NCBI GenBank assembly: GCA_043813585.1
Contig: JBDRKW010000006.1
Span: 79,444-143,443 of the forward strand
DNA length: 64,000 bases
Reading direction: 5' to 3'
Origin: Candidatus Kerfeldbacteria bacterium
GTDB lineage: Bacteria; Patescibacteriota; Patescibacteriia; UBA9570; XYC2-FULL-38-9
The translations under genes were made by a program, and so were the position numbers. How positions within the stretch are numbered: the stretch's first letter is position 1; every line of letters begins with the position of its first letter. The notes below the pieces were generated by a model. The model saw only the letters and a program-made list of their open reading frames with translations. It ran no database searches and was not told the DNA's origin. Below, piece after piece: positions 4,238 through 49,509 of the stretch.

Positions 4238-5563
4238 TCAATATACCCTTAAAAACTTCGCTTTTCGCTTGATCTTCCACTTGAACTCTTTTTTGCCAAC
4301 ATTAGTAATAAAACGGTGTTTATTCGGCTTCACATTCAATTTTAGAACCTTCTTCTTTTTTGCAAAAAAAAGCTTTTTCGTCTTCCTCCAATTCAACTTG
4401 TCTCCGAGCGTTAAACGATATGTCTTGATCTTAAGCCTCTTACCGAGCAAGCTCGCAACAACAACCTCCTGCCTCCCGTCTTCGTAGTAATCATAAATCT
4501 TTGCACGAACCTTATCCTGCTTGCGCTTGAAAATCTTTCGGTGCTTGATTCTAGTTCCATTTTTACATATCGAAAGATATTTCCCATTCACCGTAACAGC
4601 ATATTCGTATTCCTCGTCTGCATCCTCCGGTTCCGGATCTGGATCATCCGGTTCAGGTTGCGGGTCGGGATCTGGTTCCGGCTCCGGTTCCGGCTCCGGA
4701 TCAGGTTCTTCAACCGGACAATTCCCGTCATTAATCGGATAGCTCCCATGCTTCCATACCTCCGGCCCGACATCTTCGGCTATATAGATTGTGGTGGACG
4801 TGTTTGGGCAGGCCGGCTGAAGAGCGACTCCTTCCTGGTCATTGCCCGGAAGATCATACGATGCAATTGCTGTCCCATCCGCCTCGGTTTCAACTAAAAT
4901 GTTTGAACTGTCAAAAATGGAATAGAGCGTCTGCGTCTCTTCCTGATAATCCAGTCCGGAAATATCTGTTGTTCCTGTTAACGGAGCAAAATTCCCCATA
5001 TACAAAACCGTACCGCTTTCTGAAAAATCAACGTCAAATATATACACCTTGCCGTCTGCCTGCAGGCCGGCGTAAAACACTCCGCCTGAAGAACTGTCGG
5101 CATATGCATGATCACCGTTCGGAACAAAGGTCAGAGCTTCAAGGCCTGCGTTATCAGCCCCGGTCATCCAGGCAGTCAAATCCCACGATCTACCGGAATA
5201 CGACCACGGCCAGGATGAAATGTCCACTTCATAAATCGAATCAGGATGCTCGACTCCTATGTATATATAGTCACTGGAATCATCCGCAACCGCAACTCCT
5301 TCAAAGTCACCGCCTGGGCTCCATGTATGGATAATCGTCCCGTCACTGGTCATCTCTGTAATATCACCGTCGTCGCCCACGATAAACAGATGCTCAAGTG
5401 TTTTATGCCACACCGCTCCGCTTGGTTCATACCCTACTGACAAATTACTCCCGATCTCCGCGCCTGCATCACCCGGCCAGTCAGCGCCAAGCGCCCGGTT
5501 CGGCAATAAAAAAGCCCCGGCAAGCAGCAAAGGGGTAAAAATGTAAGCGGAAATTCTATTCAT
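4238..5563 (-). CDS. Secreted multi-domain protein: signal peptide, beta-propeller-like N-domain, (Glu/Asp-Pro)n linker, Lys-rich C-terminal domain
   Basis: 441 aa. N-terminal signal-like MNRISAYIFTPLLLAGAFLLPNRALG. Low-complexity EPDPEPEPEPEPDPDPQPEPDDPDPEPEDADEE linker. The last ~130 aa are extremely K/R-rich. Domain calls are inference. Confidence 0.55.
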   Translation of the reverse strand: MNRISAYIFTPLLLAGAFLLPNRALGADWPGDAGAEIGSNLSVGYEPSGAVWHKTLEHLFIVGDDGDITEMTSDGTIIHTWSPGGDFEGVAVADDSSDYIYIGVEHPDSIYEVDISSWPWSYSGRSWDLTAWMTGADNAGLEALTFVPNGDHAYADSSSGGVFYAGLQADGKVYIFDVDFSESGTVLYMGNFAPLTGTTDISGLDYQEETQTLYSIFDSSNILVETEADGTAIASYDLPGNDQEGVALQPACPNTSTTIYIAEDVGPEVWKHGSYPINDGNCPVEEPDPEPEPEPEPDPDPQPEPDDPDPEPEDADEEYEYAVTVNGKYLSICKNGTRIKHRKIFKRKQDKVRAKIYDYYEDGRQEVVVASLLGKRLKIKTYRLTLGDKLNWRKTKKLFFAKKKKVLKLNVKPNKHRFITNVGKKEFKWKIKRKAKFLRVY

Positions 5564-5621
5564 ATGATATCCCTAATGGATAGTGAAAAATATCACACGA
5601 GACGGCAATTGTCAACGCCTT

Positions 5622-5663
5622 GCCATTCGGTCGGCAGGGCTCGAACCTGCGACCTCCTGGTTA
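5622..5663 (-). other. Degenerate partial copy of the tRNA-Asn 3' half (candidate att-site remnant)
   Basis: Positions 5632-5663 are 32/32 identical to 10021-10052 of the intact tRNA-Asn (T-arm through the 3' anticodon stem). The acceptor-side flank is degenerate: TTCGGTCGG versus CTCGGGCGG. Confidence 0.5.
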
Positions 5664-5734
5664 CACAATGCGCATTGAAAAGAGTCGTATTTAATGCTAC
5701 GATTGCAGCTGAATAGTTATTATCTGCATGATTT

Positions 5735-6766
5735 ATGGTGAATGTCAGGAAGGAAGGCGTATTGTTAAAACCCACAAAACACCGGTTCGAGAACCAGGGG
5801 GTATTGAACCCATCGTGCGTCCAGGACGGTAATACCGTCCACATGTTCTACCGGGCAGTCCGGAAAGGGAATTATTCGAGTATCGGGTATGCGCGCCTGG
5901 ACGGCCCAATGAATGTAGTGGAACGCGCAACAAAGCCTGTCTTGGAACCCAAAACAAAAGACGAGGTGCACGGGGTGGAAGATCCGCGCGTCGTCTTTTT
6001 TGAAGGAACCTATTACATGACCTATACCGCATATGACGGGCAAAACGCCCTTATCGGTTTGGCCACCAGCAAAGATATGAAAACATGGAAACGTTTCGGC
6101 ATTATCTCCCCGAACATCAAGTACCATGATGCGGAAAAATTTTTTAAAAGTGCAAAGCTCAAAGAAGCATATTACCTGTTCGAAGCCTTCATGGAGCACC
6201 GTTCCGGCCCGGATGTAAAAATATGGGATAAAGACGCATTTATTCTCCCGGAGCGTATCAACGGAAAAATTGCAATGATCCACCGCATCCTGCCTGATAT
6301 ACAGATAATCTATTTTGACGATTTTAAACAGTTAAAAACCAAAGCATTCTGGGAAAAATATCTTGCGGAAATGAATAAGCATATCGTGATGGAAAACAAG
6401 TACTGGTATGAAACGCGCAACATCGGCGGCGGCGGCCCGTTTATAAAGACAGACAAAGGATGGCTGACCATTTTTCATTCCGTGAAGTCGCGCAACATCG
6501 GCAGATCATACGCGGCAAGCGCAGCGCTTCTCGACCTCAAGGATCCGCAAAAAGTCATTGCCCGCACCAAAGACCCCCTCTTCATTCCCGAAAAAAAATG
6601 GGAGGTTAAAGGGGATGTCGACAACGTCGTGTTCCCCACGGGAACTGCCGTCTTCGGCGACCGGTTATACATTTATTACGGGGCGGCAGACACGCGCATC
6701 GCCGTGGCATCGGTGCGGCTGCAGGACCTAATTGATGATCTCCTAACCAATTGGCGGCATGTCTGA
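5735..6766 (+). CDS. Glycoside hydrolase family 130-like (beta-mannoside phosphorylase/glycosidase fold)
   Basis: 343 aa with a GH130/DUF377-type N-terminus (GVLNPSCVQDGNTVHMFYRA ... DPRVV ... YYMTYTAYDG). A possible alternative TTG start at 5762 is preceded by AGGAAGG. The stop overlaps the next gene's start codon. Confidence 0.65.
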   Translation: MVNVRKEGVLLKPTKHRFENQGVLNPSCVQDGNTVHMFYRAVRKGNYSSIGYARLDGPMNVVERATKPVLEPKTKDEVHGVEDPRVVFFEGTYYMTYTAYDGQNALIGLATSKDMKTWKRFGIISPNIKYHDAEKFFKSAKLKEAYYLFEAFMEHRSGPDVKIWDKDAFILPERINGKIAMIHRILPDIQIIYFDDFKQLKTKAFWEKYLAEMNKHIVMENKYWYETRNIGGGGPFIKTDKGWLTIFHSVKSRNIGRSYAASAALLDLKDPQKVIARTKDPLFIPEKKWEVKGDVDNVVFPTGTAVFGDRLYIYYGAADTRIAVASVRLQDLIDDLLTNWRHV

Positions 6767-9011
6767 CGGCACGCAACAACCTGAGCCGAAGCGCAGCCCG
6801 GAATCATGGGTTGTTTTTATCTCTTCGTATCCTCCGAGGGAATGCGGAATTGCAACCTACACGAAACACCTGTCACAAGAAATCGCAAAACAGATGCCCA
6901 AGCCGATGCAGGCTAAAATTATCGCCATCAACCCGTCAAAAACGAAATCGTATGATTACTCCCGAAATGTTATCCGCGAAGTTGCCGAGGGCGACCGCGA
7001 GGGATTCAAAGAAACGGCAGAATGGCTGAACCGGCAGACCCGCGTGAAACTCGTAGTTATTTCGCATGAGTTCGGCCTCTTTGGCGGGAAAACGGGCGAT
7101 GCGCTGCTCCCGTTCCTTGAGACAATAAAAAAACCGGTTATGACAATTTTCCATACTGTTTTGCCCCGGTCGCACAAGCAGTACGGCGAACCCACGGAAC
7201 GCGTCATAGAGCATTCGGACCAGATCATCGTCATGAATAAGACAGCGATGAAACTGATGAGCAAAGAATATAACGTGCTGGCAAAAAAGATAGCGCTCAT
7301 CCCCCATGGAATCCCCACCATCCCCGCGTATTCCAAGGATGAAGCAAGAAAGAAAATCGGCCTGGGCGACCGGCTGGTCCTGTCCAGCTTCGGGCTGCTG
7401 GGTCCGTGCAAAGGCTACGATGTGGTACTTTCCGGCCTTCCGCAAGTTGTCCGCGAGTTCCCGAATGTCATCTACCTTATTCTCGGACAGACACATCCGA
7501 AAATTTTGCAGAAGCAGGGCGAAGTGTACCGCCATAAGCTTGAACGCCTCGTACGCAAACTGAAGCTGGAAAATAATGTAAGATTTTACAACCACTATCT
7601 TAGCCAGGAAGACGTGGTGAAGTACCTGAAAGCGACGAACATCTACGTTTGCGCATCGCAGGATCCCAATCAGATGGTCAGCGGAACGCTGTCCTACGCA
7701 CTCGGTTCGGGAACGGCAACTGTCTCCACGCCTTTTATGCACGCCAGGGAGCTGGCTGAGGATAACGTGATTATGCTGGCAAATTTTGTTGACCCTAGCT
7801 CGTTTGCAAAAGCGATCCTTGCCCTTTTAAAGGACCCGTCAAAGCGGCAGGAATACGAGGAACGCGCGTTTACGACGACGCGAAAAATGACGTGGCCAAA
7901 CGTTGCGCACGCGTACTATAAAAGAATGCTGCCGTACCTGGGAGAACTAGCAGACAAGCAAGCTTCACAACTGCCGGCCTTGCGAAGCGTTTCACTCAAA
8001 CACCTGATGCGCCTGACTGACGATTTCGGAGTCATTCAATTCGCGCAGCGGTCGGTTCCCGATATCGAATCAGGATATTGCGTGGACGATGTTTCGCGCG
8101 CGCTGGTGGCGCTGACAACGTATTGGGTCATCTACCGCAAGCCCGCCATACTGCTGACGATCAGGAAGTACCTGGATTTCATCCGTTACGTACAGGGTAA
8201 AGACGGCCGTTTTTTCAACTATGTAGACAAGAATAAGATTATTAACACGGAAGACTGGAGCAGAGATGCACACGCCCGGACGGTATGGGCGCTCGGCTAC
8301 CTCATGGCAGCCCCGGGGATACCAAAAACATTAAAAGTCCGCGCGGAAACGCTGTTTGCAGCAAGCCTGCCGATAGCGAAACATATGGACAGCCTGCGTT
8401 CAATGAGTTTTTCCACCATCGGCCTCTATTTCTTCTTTCAATACTCACATTCGCCTGCTGCAAAAAAACAACTCACTGCGTATGCCGAAGCGCTAGTAAA
8501 ACAGTTCGATGCGCACGCCCATGGCGACTGGCAGTGGTTTGAAGACCGGCTCACCTATTCCAACAGCAAGCTGCCGGAAACGCTGTTCTACGCGTTTACG
8601 GTCACCAGGAACAAACGTTACCTCGAGGTGGCGGAAACAGCGCTTGATTTCCTGATACGAACCACATTTGTTAACGAGGTGTTCCACCCCATCGGACAGG
8701 ACGGATGGTACGAACGGAACGGCAAACGCGCCCATTTTGACCAGCAGCCGGTCGATACTGCTTCAATGGTGCGGACACTGATGGTCGCATACCGGGTTAC
8801 CGACCGCCTTGAATACCTCGAAAAAGCGCACGTCGCATACAGCTGGTTCCTGGGCAACAACGCGCTGCACCTGTTGCTGTATAATGAAACAACGGGCGGC
8901 TGCCATGACGGACTGGGCAAAGAAGCCGTGAATCAAAACCAAGGGGCAGAGTCCACCATTGTTCATCTCATGGCGCGCCTGTGTATTGATACCCGGGCGA
9001 AGCTGCTATAA
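6759..9011 (+). CDS. GT4-family glycosyltransferase fused to a ~350-aa C-terminal (alpha/alpha)-toroid-like domain
   Basis: 750 aa. The N-terminal ~400 aa have GT4/GT-B features (EFGLFGG ... SSFGLLGPCKGYD ... NIYVCASQDPNQMVSGTLSYALGSGTATVSTP). The C-terminal half is helical with acidic motifs (DGWYERNG, NQGAES), suggesting a six-hairpin glycosidase-like fold by inference. The ATG overlaps the upstream stop (ATGTCTGA). Confidence 0.65.
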   Translation: MSDGTQQPEPKRSPESWVVFISSYPPRECGIATYTKHLSQEIAKQMPKPMQAKIIAINPSKTKSYDYSRNVIREVAEGDREGFKETAEWLNRQTRVKLVVISHEFGLFGGKTGDALLPFLETIKKPVMTIFHTVLPRSHKQYGEPTERVIEHSDQIIVMNKTAMKLMSKEYNVLAKKIALIPHGIPTIPAYSKDEARKKIGLGDRLVLSSFGLLGPCKGYDVVLSGLPQVVREFPNVIYLILGQTHPKILQKQGEVYRHKLERLVRKLKLENNVRFYNHYLSQEDVVKYLKATNIYVCASQDPNQMVSGTLSYALGSGTATVSTPFMHARELAEDNVIMLANFVDPSSFAKAILALLKDPSKRQEYEERAFTTTRKMTWPNVAHAYYKRMLPYLGELADKQASQLPALRSVSLKHLMRLTDDFGVIQFAQRSVPDIESGYCVDDVSRALVALTTYWVIYRKPAILLTIRKYLDFIRYVQGKDGRFFNYVDKNKIINTEDWSRDAHARTVWALGYLMAAPGIPKTLKVRAETLFAASLPIAKHMDSLRSMSFSTIGLYFFFQYSHSPAAKKQLTAYAEALVKQFDAHAHGDWQWFEDRLTYSNSKLPETLFYAFTVTRNKRYLEVAETALDFLIRTTFVNEVFHPIGQDGWYERNGKRAHFDQQPVDTASMVRTLMVAYRVTDRLEYLEKAHVAYSWFLGNNALHLLLYNETTGGCHDGLGKEAVNQNQGAESTIVHLMARLCIDTRAKLL

Positions 9012-42180: not shown

Positions 42181-42540
42181 TTAAATCATTTTCATTTCGA
42201 TATCAACCCCTGACGGCAAGGACAGGTTTGACAGCTCGTCAATCGTCTTTGGCGTTGGATTGATGATATCGACCAGCCGCTTGTGCACGCGCATTTCATA
42301 TTGGTCGCGCGCATCCTTGTGCACAAACGTGGATTTCAGCACCGTGAACTTCGACTTTTCAGTCGGCAGCGGCACCGGTCCGACAACTGTTGACCCCGAT
42401 CGCGTCGCCGTGTCAATGATGGTCTTGGTCGACTTATCGATGATCTTGCTGTCGTATGCCCGGATCTTCACGCGCAATTTCGTGGCAACCTCCGTGTCCG
42501 GACGCATATTCTTTTCGGTTTTTTTCTTTGTGGTCGGCAT
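42181..42540 (-). CDS. rpsJ: 30S ribosomal protein S10
   Basis: S10 core KLRVKIRAYDSKIID...GPVPLPT...KDARDQYE. The start may be the second Met (MRPDTE). Confidence 0.9.
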   Translation of the reverse strand: MPTTKKKTEKNMRPDTEVATKLRVKIRAYDSKIIDKSTKTIIDTATRSGSTVVGPVPLPTEKSKFTVLKSTFVHKDARDQYEMRVHKRLVDIINPTPKTIDELSNLSLPSGVDIEMKMI

Positions 42541-42610
42541 TGATGTATAAAGAGCAAGAATTCACCCGCCCCTTCTTGCAAGAAGGAAGAGAGGGCGGGC
42601 ATTCAAATTC

Positions 42611-43801
42611 TTATGCGATTATCTTAGTTACAACTCCTGAAGCAACCGTCTTTCCGCCCTCACGGACAGCAAAGCGCTGCTTCTCTTCCAGAGCAACCGG
42701 CTTGCCGAGTTTCACCTTGAAACTGACGGTATCGCCAGGCATGACCATCTCTGTGCCTTCAGGCAATTCAACTTCTCCGGTCACGTCCGTGGTGCGGATA
42801 TAGAACTGCGGCTTGTAACCCTTGGTAAACGGTGTTGCACGGCCGCCTTCATCCTTTGACAGGACATAGACCTCTGCATCAAATTCCGTGTGCGGAGTAA
42901 CCGATCCCGGTTTCGCAAGCACCTGACCGCGCTCAACCTCTTCCTTCTTGGTGCCGCGCAGCAAAATTCCGGCGTTATCGCCAGCCATACCTTCGTCCAA
43001 CTGCTTGTTGAACATCTCAATGCCTGTTACGACCGATTTCTGCGTTTCACCCAGACCCACGATCTCAACATCTTCATTAACACCCACTTTTCCGCGTTCA
43101 ATACGGCCGGTCACCACTGTGCCGCGGCCTTCAATTGAGAAGATATCTTCAATCGGCATCAGGAAATCCTGGTCAACGTCACGTACCGGTTGCGGAATGT
43201 ATTCGTCCAGGGTTTTTAGCAGTTCGATGATCGGCTTTGCGGCCTCTTCGTCAGTCGGATTCTCCAGTGCTTTCAGTGCAGAACCGCGGATAATAGGCGT
43301 TTCATCGCCCGGGTATTCATATTTGTTCAACAGGTCGCGGATTTCAACTTCAACCAGCGTCAAAAGCTCTTCGTCTTCAACCTGGTCAACTTTATTCAGG
43401 AAAACCACAACTGAAGGGACGCCGACCTGGCGAGCGAGCAGGATATGCTCTTTTGTCTGGGGCATTGGGCCGTCTGTTGCAGAAACAACAAGAATAGCGC
43501 CATCCATCTGAGCAGCGCCTGTGATCATGTTCTTCACATAATCTGCGTGGCCCGGGCAGTCAACGTGAGCATAATGACGTTTGTCCGTCTCGTACTCAAC
43601 GTGTGATGTATTAATAGTGATACCGCGCTCCTTTTCTTCCGGAGCGTTGTCGATGTCCTCAAACTTCTTGTCCTGTGCGGTTTTACCCTGTGCACCGGAA
43701 ACAGCGAGGATCGCAGCCGTCAACGTGGTTTTACCGTGGTCAACGTGACCAATGGTGCCGACATTGACGTGCGGTTTTGATCGATCGAACTTGTCAGCCA
43801 T
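42611..43801 (-). CDS. tuf: Elongation factor Tu
   Basis: 396 aa. [22 protein letters not shown]. Confidence 0.95.
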
Positions 43802-44042
43802 AAGTTTCTATAACTTTGTTTAGATAAAAATTCTTAATAAATAGACGATTCCGCAAAATGTATTGCGAAACGCGAAGTTAAAGATAGTGTGTTTACTATA
43901 GTCTGTCAAGTATTGGGCCCTGAACAGACCGCGTGTAAAACAGAGACGATTATACTTGAAACTGTTTGCTATGGCAAGAATTGTGCCTGTTCATGGTTTG
44001 GGGATAAACATAGTATAACTATTTCGCTAAAATTAGCCATAA

Positions 44043-45059
44043 TTAATATTCATCTTCACCAATAAACCAATCAAGATTCCTAATATGACTCGCCAACATA
44101 TCCGTATTCCCATGTTGTAGCAAGCCAATATATGATTGTAATACTGCAGGCAATGGGCACTGAAAAAAACGACGAAACATGCGTTGCTTTGTCCTTGTGC
44201 GCAATACCTTATGGTCCGAAAAATGCACCCAGCCCAGGAAGTCTATGCCTGAAGCTAATGAATGGATGTGCACTTTTTTTGAATGAAGCGACAAGCTTAG
44301 TTGACGATCCAGGAACAAACGTATTTGCGGAATCTGATGCACCAGCCATTCACGGTCATCAGACATCACAACAAAATCATCGGCATAGCGTATATAGGAC
44401 TTCGCTTTCAGCTGATGCTTTGCGAACTGGTCGAACTCATTCATATAGACATTCACAAACAGCTGCGAAGTCAGATTGCCAAGCGGTAGGCCAACCCTGA
44501 GAGATGAAAGATAAAAACTGGAAATAACACCCTCAAGAAGCCGCATAATATCCTCGTCAGGGATGTATTGCCGTAAAATCCCTATAAGAATGCCATGGTC
44601 GATAGATGCAAAAAACTTCCGAATATCACACTGCAGTACCCAGCAGGTTCGGGTGTTATTCCTGCTGGCTTTATATGCCATGGAACGAAACCGATCATTC
44701 GCTGCATGTGTTCCTTTGTTATTCCTGCATGAAAAAGAATCCGCAATAAATGTGCGGTCAAAAAAAGGATACAACTTGCGGTATATTGCGTGGTGCAATA
44801 ATCGATCACGGACGTCAGCCTTGTGGATGTGCCGGGGTTTCGGATCTGTGATATGGAAGCTATAATACCTGCCATGCCTGTAACTAAAGGATGCCAGCTC
44901 GTCATGCAGCTGAAGTATATTTGCCATCAGGTGACGTGAAAACAACTGCACATCCGGCTTTCCGCGTTTTCCGCGCACAAATTCTTTCCAGGCGGCTAAC
45001 AAATTTTCCACCGAAATAATTTCTTCGTAACTATGGCTGAATTGAATTCTCATAACCAA
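44043..45059 (-). CDS. Diversity-generating retroelement reverse transcriptase
   Basis: 338 aa. RT motifs include YADDFVV (motif 5) and the DGR-diagnostic LPLGNLTSQ (LGxxxSQ in place of the group II/retron QGxxxSP). The N-terminus AWKEFVRGKRGKPDV is typical of DGR RTs. An adjacent TR/VR pair is present. Confidence 0.85.
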   Translation of the reverse strand: MVMRIQFSHSYEEIISVENLLAAWKEFVRGKRGKPDVQLFSRHLMANILQLHDELASFSYRHGRYYSFHITDPKPRHIHKADVRDRLLHHAIYRKLYPFFDRTFIADSFSCRNNKGTHAANDRFRSMAYKASRNNTRTCWVLQCDIRKFFASIDHGILIGILRQYIPDEDIMRLLEGVISSFYLSSLRVGLPLGNLTSQLFVNVYMNEFDQFAKHQLKAKSYIRYADDFVVMSDDREWLVHQIPQIRLFLDRQLSLSLHSKKVHIHSLASGIDFLGWVHFSDHKVLRTRTKQRMFRRFFQCPLPAVLQSYIGLLQHGNTDMLASHIRNLDWFIGEDEY

Positions 45060-45117
45060 TCAGGACAATACCCCCCCCCAACAGCGTGGGGGCGATGATA
45101 TTCCAATTCTTGTTACG

Positions 45118-45465
45118 ATGCGGAGTGCATACGCTGCATGGCACGAATCGCTGAAGCACTTGCCGAAGGTATCGCGGTATTCGCTGGGAAAGAAAGTCGA
45201 CATATTGTTCACGGATACGATTGAAATAATACTTTACGCTGCGTATGCCAGGCGCGCTGACAAACTGGCGATTCTCCAAAAAGCCTGCGTAAAACTTGAT
45301 GCCCTGCAATTCTTCCTCCAACTCGCATGGGAACTGAACGTACTTGATAATAGGAAATATGGAGCTATTTCTACACCGCTAGCAGAAGTAGGAAAAATGC
45401 TCGGTGGCTGGAAAAAACAGTTTACGAAAGATGCCCCCAATAAACCGGGAGCACCTCGTGCATGA
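45118..45465 (+). CDS. avd: DGR accessory variability determinant (Avd-like four-helix-bundle protein)
   Basis: 115 aa, basic and helical. The C-terminus LDALQFFLQLAWELNV...PLAEVGKMLGGWKKQ parallels Bordetella-phage Avd (LAMLRFWLRFLAG...IAEVGRILGSWIARV). Oriented opposite to the RT, target and TR. Confidence 0.65.
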   Translation: MRSAYAAWHESLKHLPKVSRYSLGKKVDILFTDTIEIILYAAYARRADKLAILQKACVKLDALQFFLQLAWELNVLDNRKYGAISTPLAEVGKMLGGWKKQFTKDAPNKPGAPRA

Positions 45466-45471
45466 AGAGTG

Positions 45472-45596
45472 TTGCGGGGGACGCGAACCAGGAAGCGCCA
45501 GTTGTCGTTCCAGTCGTTCTCGAACCAGTTGAGGTTGAGGTTGCGCTCGTTGGCGTTCTCGTTCAGGTACGGCACGTTGCGGTTGCCGTTGGCATT
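45472..45596 (-). repeat. DGR template repeat (TR)
   Basis: 125 bp aligns without gaps to the VR at 45962-46086. All 15 mismatches fall on TR sense-strand adenines (34 A in total), mostly within AAC codons. The first 30 nt are identical to VR. Confidence 0.85.
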
Positions 45597-45904
45597 GTCC
45601 AGGGTACCATCCACACCACCACCCGTTGACTGCTCTCCGGGCTGTATCGAATTTGGGATATTTTAATCCTCCAGTACCCTGCACCAACAATCTTCATATT
45701 TAGAGTTTGCCGGCAGCACACTGGCCATTGCCGTGGCGTTGGCCACTCCGACCGGATCGGCAAACCCGGAATTCAACCGGCTGCAGCCGTAACCGCAGCC
45801 TGTCTCGTTTACTATCCATGTATTATTGTATCAAAATAATTGAATAAAAAAAGGGGCTTCACCAGAGAACCGGTCTCTAGGAAGCCATTTTGTCATCGCG
45901 CGAG

Positions 45905-45949
45905 GGACCAAGGGTCCAAGACCTAAAAGGACTAAGGATCCAAGAGTCC
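45905..45949 (-). promoter_or_regulatory. Two short GC hairpins just 3' of the VR/target stop (candidate DGR homing-enhancing structure)
   Basis: GGACC-AAG-GGTCC (45905-45917) and GGACT-(11-nt loop with GGATCC)-AGTCC (45929-45949). CCAAG/GTCCAAG motifs are repeated. Confidence 0.3.
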
Positions 45950-45954
45950 AAGCG

Positions 45955-46638
45955 CTAGTTTTTGCGGGGGACGCGAACCAGGAAGCGCCAGAAGTCGTAC
46001 CAGTCGTCCTCGAACCAGTAGAGGTAGAGGTCGCGCTCGCGGGCGCTCTCGTACAGGCACGGCACGTTGCGGTGGCCGTGGGCATCCGACCAGGGCACGC
46101 ACAGAATGGCGACAGGGAAGTCACGCTGCACGTCCGGGTAGTCCCGGGCGAACACGAGTCCATCGCCGAAGCTCGGACGCTGGTACCCGCTCTCCTTCAC
46201 GGCTGCCAGCACGTCCCCGGTGGACATGTAGCGGCCGAAGTGCACGACCGCCAAATCGTACTCTCCCTCTGCCGGGTCGTCCGGGGAGTTCTGCAGCGGA
46301 AACCGATCCTCGGTGATGTCCGAGTTGGTCCGGTCGAACTTCCCCGCCTTCAGTGCCTCGATCCAGCGCCAGCTAAGGCTCCAGGTCACCGGGAACGAGT
46401 CGCTCACCGTAAGCTTGACCGGCTTCAACTCGACCTTCGAGGCGCTGTCCGGCCGGCCCGCCTCCACGACCAGGTCAGCGAACCGACCGATCAGGGGACG
46501 GCCCTCCGGCGTTGCCAGGCGGTAGATCTCCTCGTCCATACCGCCGCGCTCCTTCACCGCGTTGACCAACTCGGTCCACACAGTGGTCAGAAGACCAGCT
46601 CCGGACACAATCGGGGACACATCTTTCCTCTTCGCCAT
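45955..46638 (-). CDS. DGR variable (target) protein with C-terminal FGE/C-type-lectin-like variable region
   Basis: 227 aa. The last ~42 codons form the VR (HGHRNVPCLYESARERDLYLYWFEDDWYDFWRFLVRVPRKN). The matching TR translation is NGNRNVPYLNENANERNLNLNWFENDWNDNWRFLVRVPRN. The protein ends with an FRxxR-like motif. Confidence 0.8.
   Translation of the reverse strand: MAKRKDVSPIVSGAGLLTTVWTELVNAVKERGGMDEEIYRLATPEGRPLIGRFADLVVEAGRPDSASKVELKPVKLTVSDSFPVTWSLSWRWIEALKAGKFDRTNSDITEDRFPLQNSPDDPAEGEYDLAVVHFGRYMSTGDVLAAVKESGYQRPSFGDGLVFARDYPDVQRDFPVAILCVPWSDAHGHRNVPCLYESARERDLYLYWFEDDWYDFWRFLVRVPRKN
45962..46086 (-). repeat. DGR variable repeat (VR) at the 3' end of the target gene
   Basis: See TR. 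Differences from TR occur only at TR adenines (A to T/G/C). The 30-nt identical GC-rich 3' block is IMH-like. Confidence 0.85.
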
Positions 46639-46835
46639 GACTTACTCCTTTCGTTATGCATTCCCCTCACCCTGCAACCACGCGAGGGCCTCAGGAACGC
46701 GGTTCGTCACAGCCCGCAATATACAAACCACGCTAACATAGCGCATTTACAGCCTGCGGACTGCAACGAAAAACTATCTGGCTATACATTAACCAGACAG
46801 TGGAAACTACACAATTTTGGCAAAAATGTCAAGGT

Positions 46836-46862
46836 ACAAAAAAGCCCGGGATCAACCGGGCT
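46836..46862 (-). terminator. Rho-independent terminator after fusA
   Basis: GCCCGG-ATCAA-CCGGGC stem-loop followed by TTTTTTGT on the minus strand, 20 nt after the fusA stop. Confidence 0.5.
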
Positions 46863-46883
46863 TTCCACTATCTGTACTTCTAT

Positions 46884-49019
46884 TTACTCTTCGTCTTCGT
46901 CGTCCGCTACAACGCCGCCGCGATCCTCAACGATCTTATTTGATACGTTCTTCGGCACCTGGCTGTATTTCTCGAATTCCATTGAGAAACTCGCCCGTCC
47001 CTGCGTGATAGAACGTAATTGCGTTGCGTAGCCGAACATTTCGGACAGCGGAACGGTCGCTTCAACAACCTTCATATTGCCGCGATCGGTCATTTCGCCG
47101 ATCTGTCCGCGCTTTGAGTTCAGGTCGCCCATCACATCGCCCATGAAATCTTCAGGCGTCACCACCTCAACACTCATGACCGGCTCGAGCAGCACAGGTC
47201 CCGCTCTGCGTGCGGCGGTTTTGAACGCCTTGGAACCGGCTATTTTGAACGCCGCTTCAGACGAGTCAACGTCATGGTACGAACCGTCAATCAGACGAAC
47301 CTTGATATCCAGCAGAGGATATCCGGCAACAATGCCGCGGTCCATGGCTTCCCTTACGCCTTTCTCAATAGGCGCAATAAATTCGCGCGGAATGGATCCG
47401 CCTTTAGTCTGATCCACAAACTCGAAGTGTTTCTTCTCTTCCTCATCTTCCGGCTGTACATACGGCTCGACAATAAGCACGCAATGGCCGTACTGTCCGC
47501 GGCCGCCGGTCTGCTTGACGTACTTCTCTTCGCCTTCAGCTTCCTTAGTAATAGTTTCCTTGTACGCCACCTGCGGCTGGCCGATATTCGCCTCGACATT
47601 GAACTCGCGCTTCATGCGGTCGATGATGATGTCCAGATGCAGCTCGCCCATGCCGGACAATACCGTCTGGTTCGTCTCTTCATCGGATTTGACGCGCAGG
47701 GTAGGATCCTCTTCCACCAGGCGCTGGATCGCAATGCCCATCTTTTCCTGGTCTGCCTTGGTTTTCGGCTCAACCGCAATGGAAATGACCGGTTCCGGGA
47801 AGGTAATCTGTTCCAGAACAATTGGATGCTCCGGATCGCACAGCGTGCTGCCGGTAATGGTTTCTTTCAGGCCGACTGCAGCGGCAATGTCTCCGGCGCA
47901 GATCTCTTCAATTTCTTCGCGGGAATTTGCATGCATGCGGACCAGGCGCGAAATGCGTTCCTTGTTGCCAGTGGTCATGTTCAGCACGTACGAACCTGAT
48001 TTTAGCACGCCCGAATAGACGCGGATAAAAATAAGCTTTCCGACATACGGGTCAGTCGCCACTTTAAAGGCCAACGCTGCCAGCGGCTGATCATCATCAG
48101 TGGTGCGCTCGATTTCTTTCTCCAGGTCGTCTGCGTCATGCCCGATGGTCGGAGGAAGGTCAAGCGGCGACGGCAGGTAGGCCGTCACTGCATCCAGCAT
48201 GTACTGGACGCCTTTATTTTTTAGAGCCGAACCGCACAGCACCGGAACGATATCGTTCGCGATTGTTGCCACACGCAGCACCCTTATGATATCTGCTTCG
48301 CTGATCTCCTTGCCTTCGAGGTAATCATTCATCAGTGCTTCGTCATTTTCAACCACTGCCTCAACCAGTTCCGCGCGATATTTCTCAACTTTGTCTTTCA
48401 TGTCCTCGGGCACGTCGACTTCCTCAAAATCAGTTCCCATTTCATCCTTATAAATGACCGCTTTGCGACGGATGATGTCGATGATGCCCTGGAAGGTGTC
48501 AGCCGCGCCAATCGGCAGCTGAATCGGGAACGCACGCTTGGTCAGGCGGTTATGGATTGAATCCATGTCCTTGTAGAAGTCCGCGCCAGTGCGGTCCATC
48601 TTATTGATGAACGCCAGCCGCGGTACGCTGTACTTGTCTGCCTGGTGCCATACGGTCTCGGACTGCGGTTCAACGCCGGCAACGCCGTCAAATATCACAA
48701 CGCCGCCGTCCAGAACGCGGAGCGAGCGCTCCACCTCTACCGTGAAGTCAACGTGGCCCGGGGTATCGATGATATTGATCTTGGTGTCTTTCCAGAACGC
48801 CGTTGTCGCGGCAGCAGTAATCGTAATGCCGCGCTCCTGTTCCTGTTCCATCCAGTCCATGGTGGCTTCGCCCTCATGCACTTCGCCGATCTTATGCGTG
48901 CGGCCGGTATAAAACAGGACGCGCTCGGTGACCGTCGTCTTTCCCGCGTCAATATGGGCGATAATGCCGATATTGCGAGTTTTTTCCAATGGATAGTGTA
49001 CTTTTTCTTCTTCTGACAT
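46884..49019 (-). CDS. fusA: Elongation factor G
   Basis: 711 aa. [22 protein letters not shown], and domains II-V are conserved. Confidence 0.95.
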
Positions 49020-49044
49020 ATCGTTATCTCTGTTTCATTATAGG

Positions 49045-49509
49045 TTATGCAAAGTGAGCAAATGCGCGGTTGGATTCTGCCATGCGCTGGACATCTTCCT
49101 TCCTCTTCATCGCGTCTCCTTCGCCGTTCGCCGCATCCATAATTTCGAGAGCGAGTTTTTCCCGCATTGGCTTGCCCTTGCGCTTGCTTGCCGCCTCAAT
49201 AATCCAACGGCTGGCCAGCGTGAACCGGCGTTCCGGCCGGACCTCGATAGGCACCTGGTAGTTTGCACCGCCAATACGGCGAGCGCGCACTTCAAGTGAC
49301 GGTGTGATGTTCTGCATCGCCTTCAGCCATGCATCATACCCAGGCTCGCCTGTCTTTTTTTCGACAAGATCAAACGCGCCGTAGACAATTTTGGTCGCCT
49401 TGGTTTTCTTGCCGCCTTTCATGATGTAATTGATGAACTTTGCTACCTGTGTTGAATTGTAACGTTCATCTGGTTTTATATCTCTCTTTGGAGCTTGTTT
49501 GCCTCTCAT
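49045..49509 (-). CDS. rpsG: 30S ribosomal protein S7
   Basis: 154 aa. MRGKQAPKRDIKPDERYNS. Confidence 0.9.
   Translation of the reverse strand: MRGKQAPKRDIKPDERYNSTQVAKFINYIMKGGKKTKATKIVYGAFDLVEKKTGEPGYDAWLKAMQNITPSLEVRARRIGGANYQVPIEVRPERRFTLASRWIIEAASKRKGKPMREKLALEIMDAANGEGDAMKRKEDVQRMAESNRAFAHFA

Follow-up and report, generated by a model that had tools for sequence, protein, structure and literature searches.

This study concerns a 64,000-nt stretch of a Candidatus Kerfeldbacteria bacterium contig (JBDRKW010000006.1, positions 79,444 to 143,443; hereafter the window), whose positions 44043 to 46638 very probably hold a genuine and complete chromosomal diversity-generating retroelement (DGR) of the type found in the Candidate Phyla Radiation (CPR), whose target of diversification is the stretch of ~40 residues that ends a small protein of C-type lectin (CLec)-like fold, in which no secretion signal is obvious. 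The host replicon is a Patescibacteria (Kerfeldbacteria) chromosome. An original prediction, made by a model from the letters of the window, had listed all DGR components and these are indeed present: a reverse transcriptase (RT), Avd, a template repeat (TR) as well as a variable repeat (VR), the latter at the very 3' end of a target open reading frame (ORF) that is intact. The prediction gave Avd without a strand, to which must be added that avd lies on the plus strand.

44043..45059, minus strand: DGR reverse transcriptase, 338 aa from TTG 45059; Pfam RVT_1; motifs PLGNLTSQ and YADD
45118..45465, plus strand: avd, 115 aa; opposite strand to RT, TR and target; stop codon 7 nt from the TR end
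45472..45596, minus strand: TR, 125 nt; 34 adenines; 12 AAC codons
45962..46086, minus strand: VR, the final 41 target codons; 4 nt separate it from the stop codon
45955..46638, minus strand: target gene, 227 aa; N-terminal three-helix bundle at residues ~9-61 and divergent C-type-lectin-like domain at ~77-227

Template and variable repeat differ at template adenines

A mechanical repeat search returned one direct repeat in the window, its copies 45472-45595 and 45962-46085 being offset by 490 nt. Read in the sense of the target, on the minus strand, TR and VR align over 125 nt without gaps and with 15 mismatches. When the tabulation of mismatches was repeated, all 15 again fell on TR adenines (six A to G, six A to T and three A to C), as originally reported; the probability of this by chance is 2e-10 (hypergeometric; 34 A of 125). 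Similarity breaks off sharply at both ends of the repeat. The TR adenines are found at position 1 (14) or position 2 (20) of the codons of the target frame and never at position 3. Nine diversified AAC codons had been counted before, which is too low: 11 of the 12 TR AAC codons are altered in VR, and so are one AAT and one TAC codon. The translations quoted with that count were correct.

The segment 45472-45501, 30 nt in length, is GC-rich, identical in TR and VR and, in sense orientation, forms the 3' end of the repeat. It had been proposed to resemble the initiation of mutagenic homing (IMH) site, with which its position at the sense 3' end agrees. No further VR was found in the 64-kb window. 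An 8-mer resembling CTTGG, spotted by eye 3' of VR, was considered as a tandem repeat and rejected for lack of support by TRF.

Reverse transcriptase and Avd

The best match of the RT in the PDB, determined by phmmer, is 8ub7_A with an E-value of 5.5e-42, followed by RTs of the group II intron and retron type at 8.8e-20, a gap of 22 orders of magnitude. Since chain B of the entry is named Avd, 8ub7 is taken as the bRT-Avd complex of the Bordetella phage. In the alignment of both RTs the motifs PLGNLTSQLFVNVY/IGSLTSQLFANVY as well as YADD/YMDD correspond, which bears out the motifs PLGNLTSQ and YADD on which the RT had been called. Although the ORF opens at TTG 45059, the start homologous to that of related RTs is probably ATG 45053.

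Avd was identified by Pfam family PF22296 (bAvd) with 45.9 bits, above the gathering score of 40. A profile made of 22 Avds of the clade has Bordetella Avd, in entries 4dwl and 8ub7_B, as its two best PDB matches, with weak E-values of 0.016-0.08. The C-terminus AEVGKMLGGW parallels AEVGRILGSW of Bordetella Avd, a likeness already pointed out in the original prediction, and the profile match to Bordetella Avd spans this segment.

Relatives and architecture

Relatives were collected by scanning one genome per species, by which 547 RT relatives were confirmed; the comparisons in this work use the best 80 of these 547, which show ~60% identity and derive almost all from Patescibacteria metagenome-assembled genomes (MAGs). 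In all 76 relatives that have upstream sequence, avd is inverted and lies directly upstream of RT. At ~60 loci an A-biased TR abuts the 3' end of avd, and VR, located 260-610 nt (mostly ~320-400) upstream, ends a gene for ~200-230 aa. The relatives occupy many different chromosomal sites. One locus (L002) carries beside its B3-type element a second and different DGR at 5009-5933, with an A-biased TR/VR of its own and a second RT match at 5652-7061.

A single line of evidence could suggest that the element is not a DGR but a decaying partial gene duplication beside an unrelated retron or group II intron RT, namely that the top NCBIfam model for the RT is a group II intron RT/maturase, be it at 125.7 bits and far under its cut-off of 300. 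This explanation has next to no probability, given that the RT resembles bRT far more closely than it does RTs of group II introns or retrons, that Avd is present, that mismatches are confined to adenines and TR adenines to codon positions 1 and 2, and that the same A-biased arrangement recurs in ~60 relatives.

The element is of architecture B3, with the order target-TR-(avd on the reverse strand)-RT. The first survey of DGRs in CPR/Patescibacteria is reportedly that of Paul et al. 2017. The rarity implied by the original prediction does not hold, since architecture B3, 'TR-(avd)-RT', makes up 90% of CPR DGRs (Wu et al. 2018, PMC5758913) and targets without recognisable domains are typical (PMC8144416). 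CPR DGRs form the recognised clade 2, whose members, according to Roux et al. 2021 (PMC8144416), are nearly all encoded by cells. Membership of clade 2 was assigned to the present element from its Patescibacteria host and cellular context, not from an RT tree. It shares with the CPR B3/clade-2 DGRs the host group, gene order, inverted avd and chromosomal location, as well as a single small target with C-terminal VR and with no recognisable domain or membrane anchor. An occasional proximity to ribosomal-protein genes is also common to both, and there is no difference in kind.

The target protein

The C-terminal domain of the target, which includes VR, models as a divergent CLec fold. This was obtained with an alignment-based model of good quality; a single-sequence AF2 run yielded a confidence (pLDDT) of 36 and was useless. 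The target has no sequence match in Pfam, NCBIfam or PDB, and a Foldseek comparison of its fold with PDB and BFVD gave no significant match. The original prediction of an FGE/C-type-lectin-like target thus stands in its second part and only at the level of the modelled fold, whereas HMM profiles of FGE-sulfatase and DUF1566 match neither the target nor any of 61 members of its family, and none of these 61 matches any Pfam family. A word-indexed search of 5.8 billion proteins recovered only the target itself, as hypothetical protein of a Candidatus Kerfeldbacteria MAG, a name that belongs to the Patescibacteria/Parcubacteria group; exhaustive HMMER searching identified a family whose cluster representatives number 1,838 at E<=1e-3, of which 547 reach E<=1e-10, and are mostly ~205 aa in length.

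By eye, the protein opens with an amphipathic helix that bears charged residues, not with a signal peptide, and inspection of the sequence only, no predictor having been run, revealed no obvious signal peptide or transmembrane segment in the target. This fits the published remark that targets of CPR clade-2 DGRs typically lack recognisable membrane or other domains (PMC8144416).

The target stands out in composition. Its GC content is 64.6%, as compared to 43.6% for RT, 47.7% for avd and 51.3% for the window, and its GC content at third codon positions (GC3) is 0.85, as compared to 0.46 for RT. The same is seen in the clade, where means for target and RT are 56.8% vs 42.0% for GC and 0.655 vs 0.456 for GC3, the target being higher in 54 of 58 loci; a single recent horizontal transfer as source of the GC-rich target was therefore rejected. 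GC3 is also raised in tuf, fusA and rpsJ (0.55-0.69), and because the target exceeds all three, it is possibly highly expressed. Expression-linked codon bias is a plausible cause of the high GC3, and exchange of cassettes between lineages a possible one.

A structured template RNA

Between VR and TR lies a non-coding spacer of ~350 nt, which nhmmer could align in 60 of 62 loci despite the ~60% identity of the RTs. In and around this spacer the following elements were identified.

45846..45880, minus strand: hairpin followed by a T7 run, read from the sequence; relatives have a GC hairpin and T-run at the same place; probable terminator of the target gene
45825..45833, minus strand: extended -10 promoter motif TGATACAAT (TGnTAnnnT), downstream of the terminator-like hairpin and T-run of the target
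45597..45800, minus strand: structured 5' domain of the template RNA, six helices; nhmmer and RNAalifold covariation
45428..45457, minus strand: 13-bp hairpin 3' of TR, starting 14 nt past TR; overlaps the last avd codons on the plus strand

The RNAalifold consensus of the 250 nt before TR, determined with 43 sequences, has 46 pairs in six helices, 39 of which show compensatory changes. Paired cells amount to 95.1%, as compared to 70.3% in shuffled alignments, none of 500 reaching the observed value, and to 39-48% with slid partners. The covariation score is 0.777, as compared to 0.277 for shuffled alignments and <=0.2 for slid partners. Helix 4, with 12 bp, pairs 45684-45673 with 45608-45597 and ends exactly at the 5' boundary of TR, and helix 6 (45642-45621) carries the conserved loop NGAGAGUAUUCAA. 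The domain matches no Rfam family, even at E<=5, and folding of the window RNA alone was uninformative (z +0.8).

In 33 of 42 loci the motif TGnTAnnnT precedes helix 1 by 18-25 nt, the expectation being ~0.1 per 80 nt. On the other side of TR, folding of each sequence by itself gave a hairpin that starts about 12 nt past TR. Its stem reaches 7 bp or more in 56 of 63 loci, as compared to 32% of control windows; the sequence of the stem differs among loci with retention of pairing, and a T-rich tail follows in 47 of the 63. MAFFT and RNAalifold predicted no pairs for this region, the variable hairpins being out of register. The hairpin is a candidate stem-loop for Avd binding and/or a candidate terminator of the template RNA. 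One stretch of DNA here serves both the tail of the Avd protein and the stem of an antisense RNA; the template RNA and the mRNA of avd would converge and overlap.

The loop of helix 6, GAGAG(U) at 45621-45642, is complementary to CUCUC/CUCUUC just 3' of TR (45460-45471). At two loci, L039 and L040, both sides covary (AAGAG with CUCUU); other variants do not fit. A long-range contact between the loop and this segment may bracket TR.

Hence, judged by promoter motif, 5' domain, TR and hairpin, the template of the clade is probably a discrete non-coding RNA (ncRNA) of ~400 nt with its own promoter. Its 5' domain is a candidate for the role that the 3' spacer has in Bordetella, an equivalence in function that we infer by analogy. 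Handa et al. (bioRxiv 10.1101/2023.10.23.563531), whose comparison across DGRs was confined to the 40 nt 5' and the 100 nt 3' of TR, described stem-loops just 3' of TR as well as duplexes between upstream and downstream sequence in 207 of 278 elements, categories which the 3' hairpin and helix 4 fit. No description of the large 5' domain was found in the literature searched.

For the RT-Avd-RNA complex, the priming mode, homing and current activity we rely on the Bordetella paradigm, by which the element would work as follows. The RNA of ~400 nt, consisting of the six-helix 5' domain, the 125-nt TR and the 3' hairpin, would be transcribed from its own extended -10 promoter and be bound by RT and by Avd, made from the other strand, upon which TR would be copied into cDNA with random nucleotides inserted opposite the 34 template adenines. 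Guided by the GC-rich 3' segment of 30 nt in which TR and VR are identical, the cDNA would then take the place of VR in the target gene, at its 3' end, and variation would thus be confined to the binding surface of the target.

A poly-G tract at the avd/RT junction

The head-to-head junction of avd and RT contains a homopolymer that is the only G/C run of at least 8 nt in the window.

45071..45079, minus strand: homopolymer G9 (C9 on the avd strand), directly followed by the -10-like hexamer TATTGT (45070-45065)

Of 77 related loci, 71 have a pure run of 8-17 G, with a mode of 10-11, at this position, as compared to a background of only six runs of at least 8 nt in the remaining 709 kb of locus sequence. 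On the RT strand, 28 of the 71 loci have a hexamer of the form TAnnnT immediately behind the run, with a background of 1.5%, and the ATG of RT follows exactly 7 nt past the hexamer in 16 loci, which is the modal distance. In many relatives a weak -35-like motif precedes the run; motif, linker and run together mostly total 16-19 nt. In the window the RT ATG lies 11 nt past TATTGT and there is no convincing -35. We considered whether the length of the run compensates the length of the linker, resulting in a fixed -35/-10 spacing; this was rejected (r = -0.05).

On the avd strand the run reads as prolines in the avd frame, by which a poly-C frameshift switch within avd was considered and set aside. 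An upstream ATG is in frame in 19 of 71 loci and in the other frames in 35 and 17, which is about random, and both Pfam and the relatives that bear an ATG place the start of Avd downstream of the run; for both reasons the frameshift version is not supported.

Length variation was studied by means of a metagenome scan with the flanks of two relatives, which recovered counterparts of both. One pair (L061 and L082), two assemblies of a single relative, is identical over 9,400 nt except for G9 vs G10 in the run; the other is identical over 9,645 nt. The G9/G10 difference could be real heterogeneity or a difference in homopolymer assembly.

Homopolymers in promoter spacers cause phase variation elsewhere, for instance at Neisseria porA and opc and at Bordetella fim. 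The present loci resemble these homopolymeric phase-variation loci in that an uninterrupted G/C run, 8-17 nt long, immediately precedes a -10-like hexamer and in that the length of the run differs between close relatives. The resemblance is one of sequence only, and the -35 in the window is weak or absent. A literature search found no paper that links DGRs with phase variation by homopolymeric tracts. The G-run is, as far as its sequence and position go, a candidate phase-variable switch. We tentatively envisage, as a possible though doubtful scheme for the whole clade, that the tract forms the spacer of a near-leaderless RT promoter and slips, by which expression of RT, and possibly of avd, would go up or down stochastically and gate hypermutation, with the template provided by the separate ncRNA of ~400 nt whose 5' domain would replace the 3' spacer RNA of Bordetella.

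Beside the run, at 45046-45120 on the plus strand, the window has an extra segment as compared to relatives, QQRGGDD, that contains a C5...G5 hairpin.

Intact element or relic

A number of observations weigh against a complete DGR of the canonical type. The IMH-like segment shows no IMH/IMH* difference within the repeat, TR and VR being equal across the whole 3' segment and diverging immediately beyond, and there is no significant DNA hairpin or cruciform directly after VR (z -0.55). In this respect, identical IMH/IMH* are known in some DGRs and inverted repeats occur in only 34% (Wu et al., PMC5758913). Avd scores 65 bits with the NCBIfam equivalog model NF033474, under its cut-off of 80, and where the relatives have their N-terminus, avd lacks a canonical start codon. 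Its frame is open from 45046 and has no ATG, GTG or TTG before 45118, and residues homologous to helix 1 (IPILVT) stand upstream of ATG 45118, such that starting there would drop the start of that helix. The true start may therefore lie upstream of ATG 45118, and the sequence suggests that avd either begins at a non-canonical codon, for instance ATT, or encodes an Avd shortened at its N-terminus. Behind the 3' hairpin the tail is less T-rich in the window, which makes termination less certain than in relatives. Finally, a pattern derived from TR matched no other copy in JGI metagenomes, look-ups with the exact proteins yielded no further contigs, and no population variants of VR were retrieved.

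Part of this could be explained by a fossil or switched-off element, in which the TR/VR differences stem from past mutagenesis and Avd or RT is no longer made. Besides the avd start, the atypical hairpin tail and the lack of further VR copies from pattern scan and protein look-ups, it would account for the absence from the window of a -35-like motif at the spacing that many relatives show before the G-run. We consider it unlikely: the ORFs of RT and target and the body of avd are intact, the catalytic motifs are present, the window sequence preserves every helix in the template RNA's 5' domain, and 125 nt of TR and VR contain not one mismatch outside adenines, which points to recent homing or strong maintenance.

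Genomic setting

The cassette is compact (2.9 kb) and lies between fusA (46884-49019), identified by Pfam, and tuf (42611-43801), co-oriented with the str/S10 ribosomal cluster. Within 42181-49509 it thus breaks up the fusA-tuf pair, which is normally contiguous in the str operon. Two further features flank it.

46838..46864, minus strand: intrinsic-terminator-like hairpin and T-run, AAAGCCCGG-TTGAT-CCCGGGCTTTTTTT, read from the sequence directly 3' of the fusA stop codon
43881..43977, minus strand: promoter-like sites upstream of tuf, TTGCCA-17-TATAAT and TTGACA-17-TATCTT

The hairpin and T-run would separate fusA from the DGR cassette, and the promoter-like sites point to an expression of tuf that does not depend on the inserted cassette. 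A conserved insertion site at fusA/tuf was considered and rejected, as only three other relatives (L006, L048 and L057) are found near str/S10 genes, beside rpsG/fusA/tuf/rpsJ and at other positions. Wu et al. (PMC5758913) noted ribosomal-protein genes within five CPR DGRs.

DGRs were first discovered in phages, the cassette must have been inserted given that it interrupts an otherwise conserved junction, and RT and avd have a lower GC content than the surrounding genome, which together could suggest a prophage or mobile-element cassette which, like that of Bordetella phage BPP-1, serves host tropism by varying a receptor-binding protein. That origin is highly improbable. The flanks consist of core translation genes (rpsG, fusA, tuf and rpsJ) with no adjoining phage-like genes, the fold of the target has no significant viral match in BFVD, the relatives are dispersed over many chromosomal sites and, as mentioned, clade-2 DGRs of the CPR are almost entirely cell-encoded (PMC8144416). 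A cellular DGR remains the preferred reading.

Comparison with known systems

The element resembles the DGR of BPP-1 (mtd-avd-TR-Sp-brt) in its RT family, with motif 4 xGxxTSQ and Y[AM]DD, in a four-helix Avd with conserved C-terminal AEVG+ILG+W, and in adenine mutagenesis, an AAC-rich TR and a CLec-fold target with C-terminal VR. Both have a stem-loop just 3' of TR, and the duplex at the 5' end of TR is positionally analogous to the cPRT Stop. In contrast, where BPP-1 has a dedicated spacer of 140 nt 3' of TR, antisense avd is found here, and whereas BPP-1 needs only 20 nt upstream of TR, a large conserved RNA domain precedes TR here. Furthermore, the template RNA seems to be a transcription unit of its own, and the host is cellular with a target that is not a tail fibre, as opposed to the phage host and tail-fibre target of BPP-1.

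RT-10 and further 'RT' motifs in Rfam (Weinberg et al. 2017, PMC5737381) are also structured RNAs beside the RT or TR of DGRs and were proposed to act in reverse transcription; the domain described here differs in that it lies upstream of TR and has no Rfam match. With Treponema TvpA (2y3c) and Bordetella Mtd (1yu0), variable proteins of DGRs whose CLec folds have been solved, the target has no sequence or HMM similarity, and it shows no FGE-sulfatase signature. It is much smaller than either, has an N-terminal three-helix bundle and no evident lipoprotein or secretion signal.

The literature searched, with Paul et al. 2017 outside its coverage, holds no description of the exact site of insertion between fusA and tuf, the RNA domain 5' of TR, the poly-G tract or the GC3-rich target. 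The latter three appear to be features of the clade rather than of this element alone.

Significance

As a DGR the element adds little, as the richness of CPR in DGRs, the architecture and the type of target without domains have all been published. Its value is that of an example which is complete, clean and compact and whose chromosomal context is defined, and the clade-wide features would be of specialist interest if confirmed and unpublished. For B3 elements, in which the region 3' of TR is antisense avd, the question of how the ribonucleoprotein assembles gains a concrete candidate for the replacement of the spacer in the covarying 5' domain. Likewise, the conserved poly-G tract is a concrete candidate switch for DGR regulation. 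Finally, the target, from a family with ~1,800 representatives and no Pfam model, raises the question which role small CLec-fold targets, seemingly without secretion signal, play in episymbiotic bacteria.

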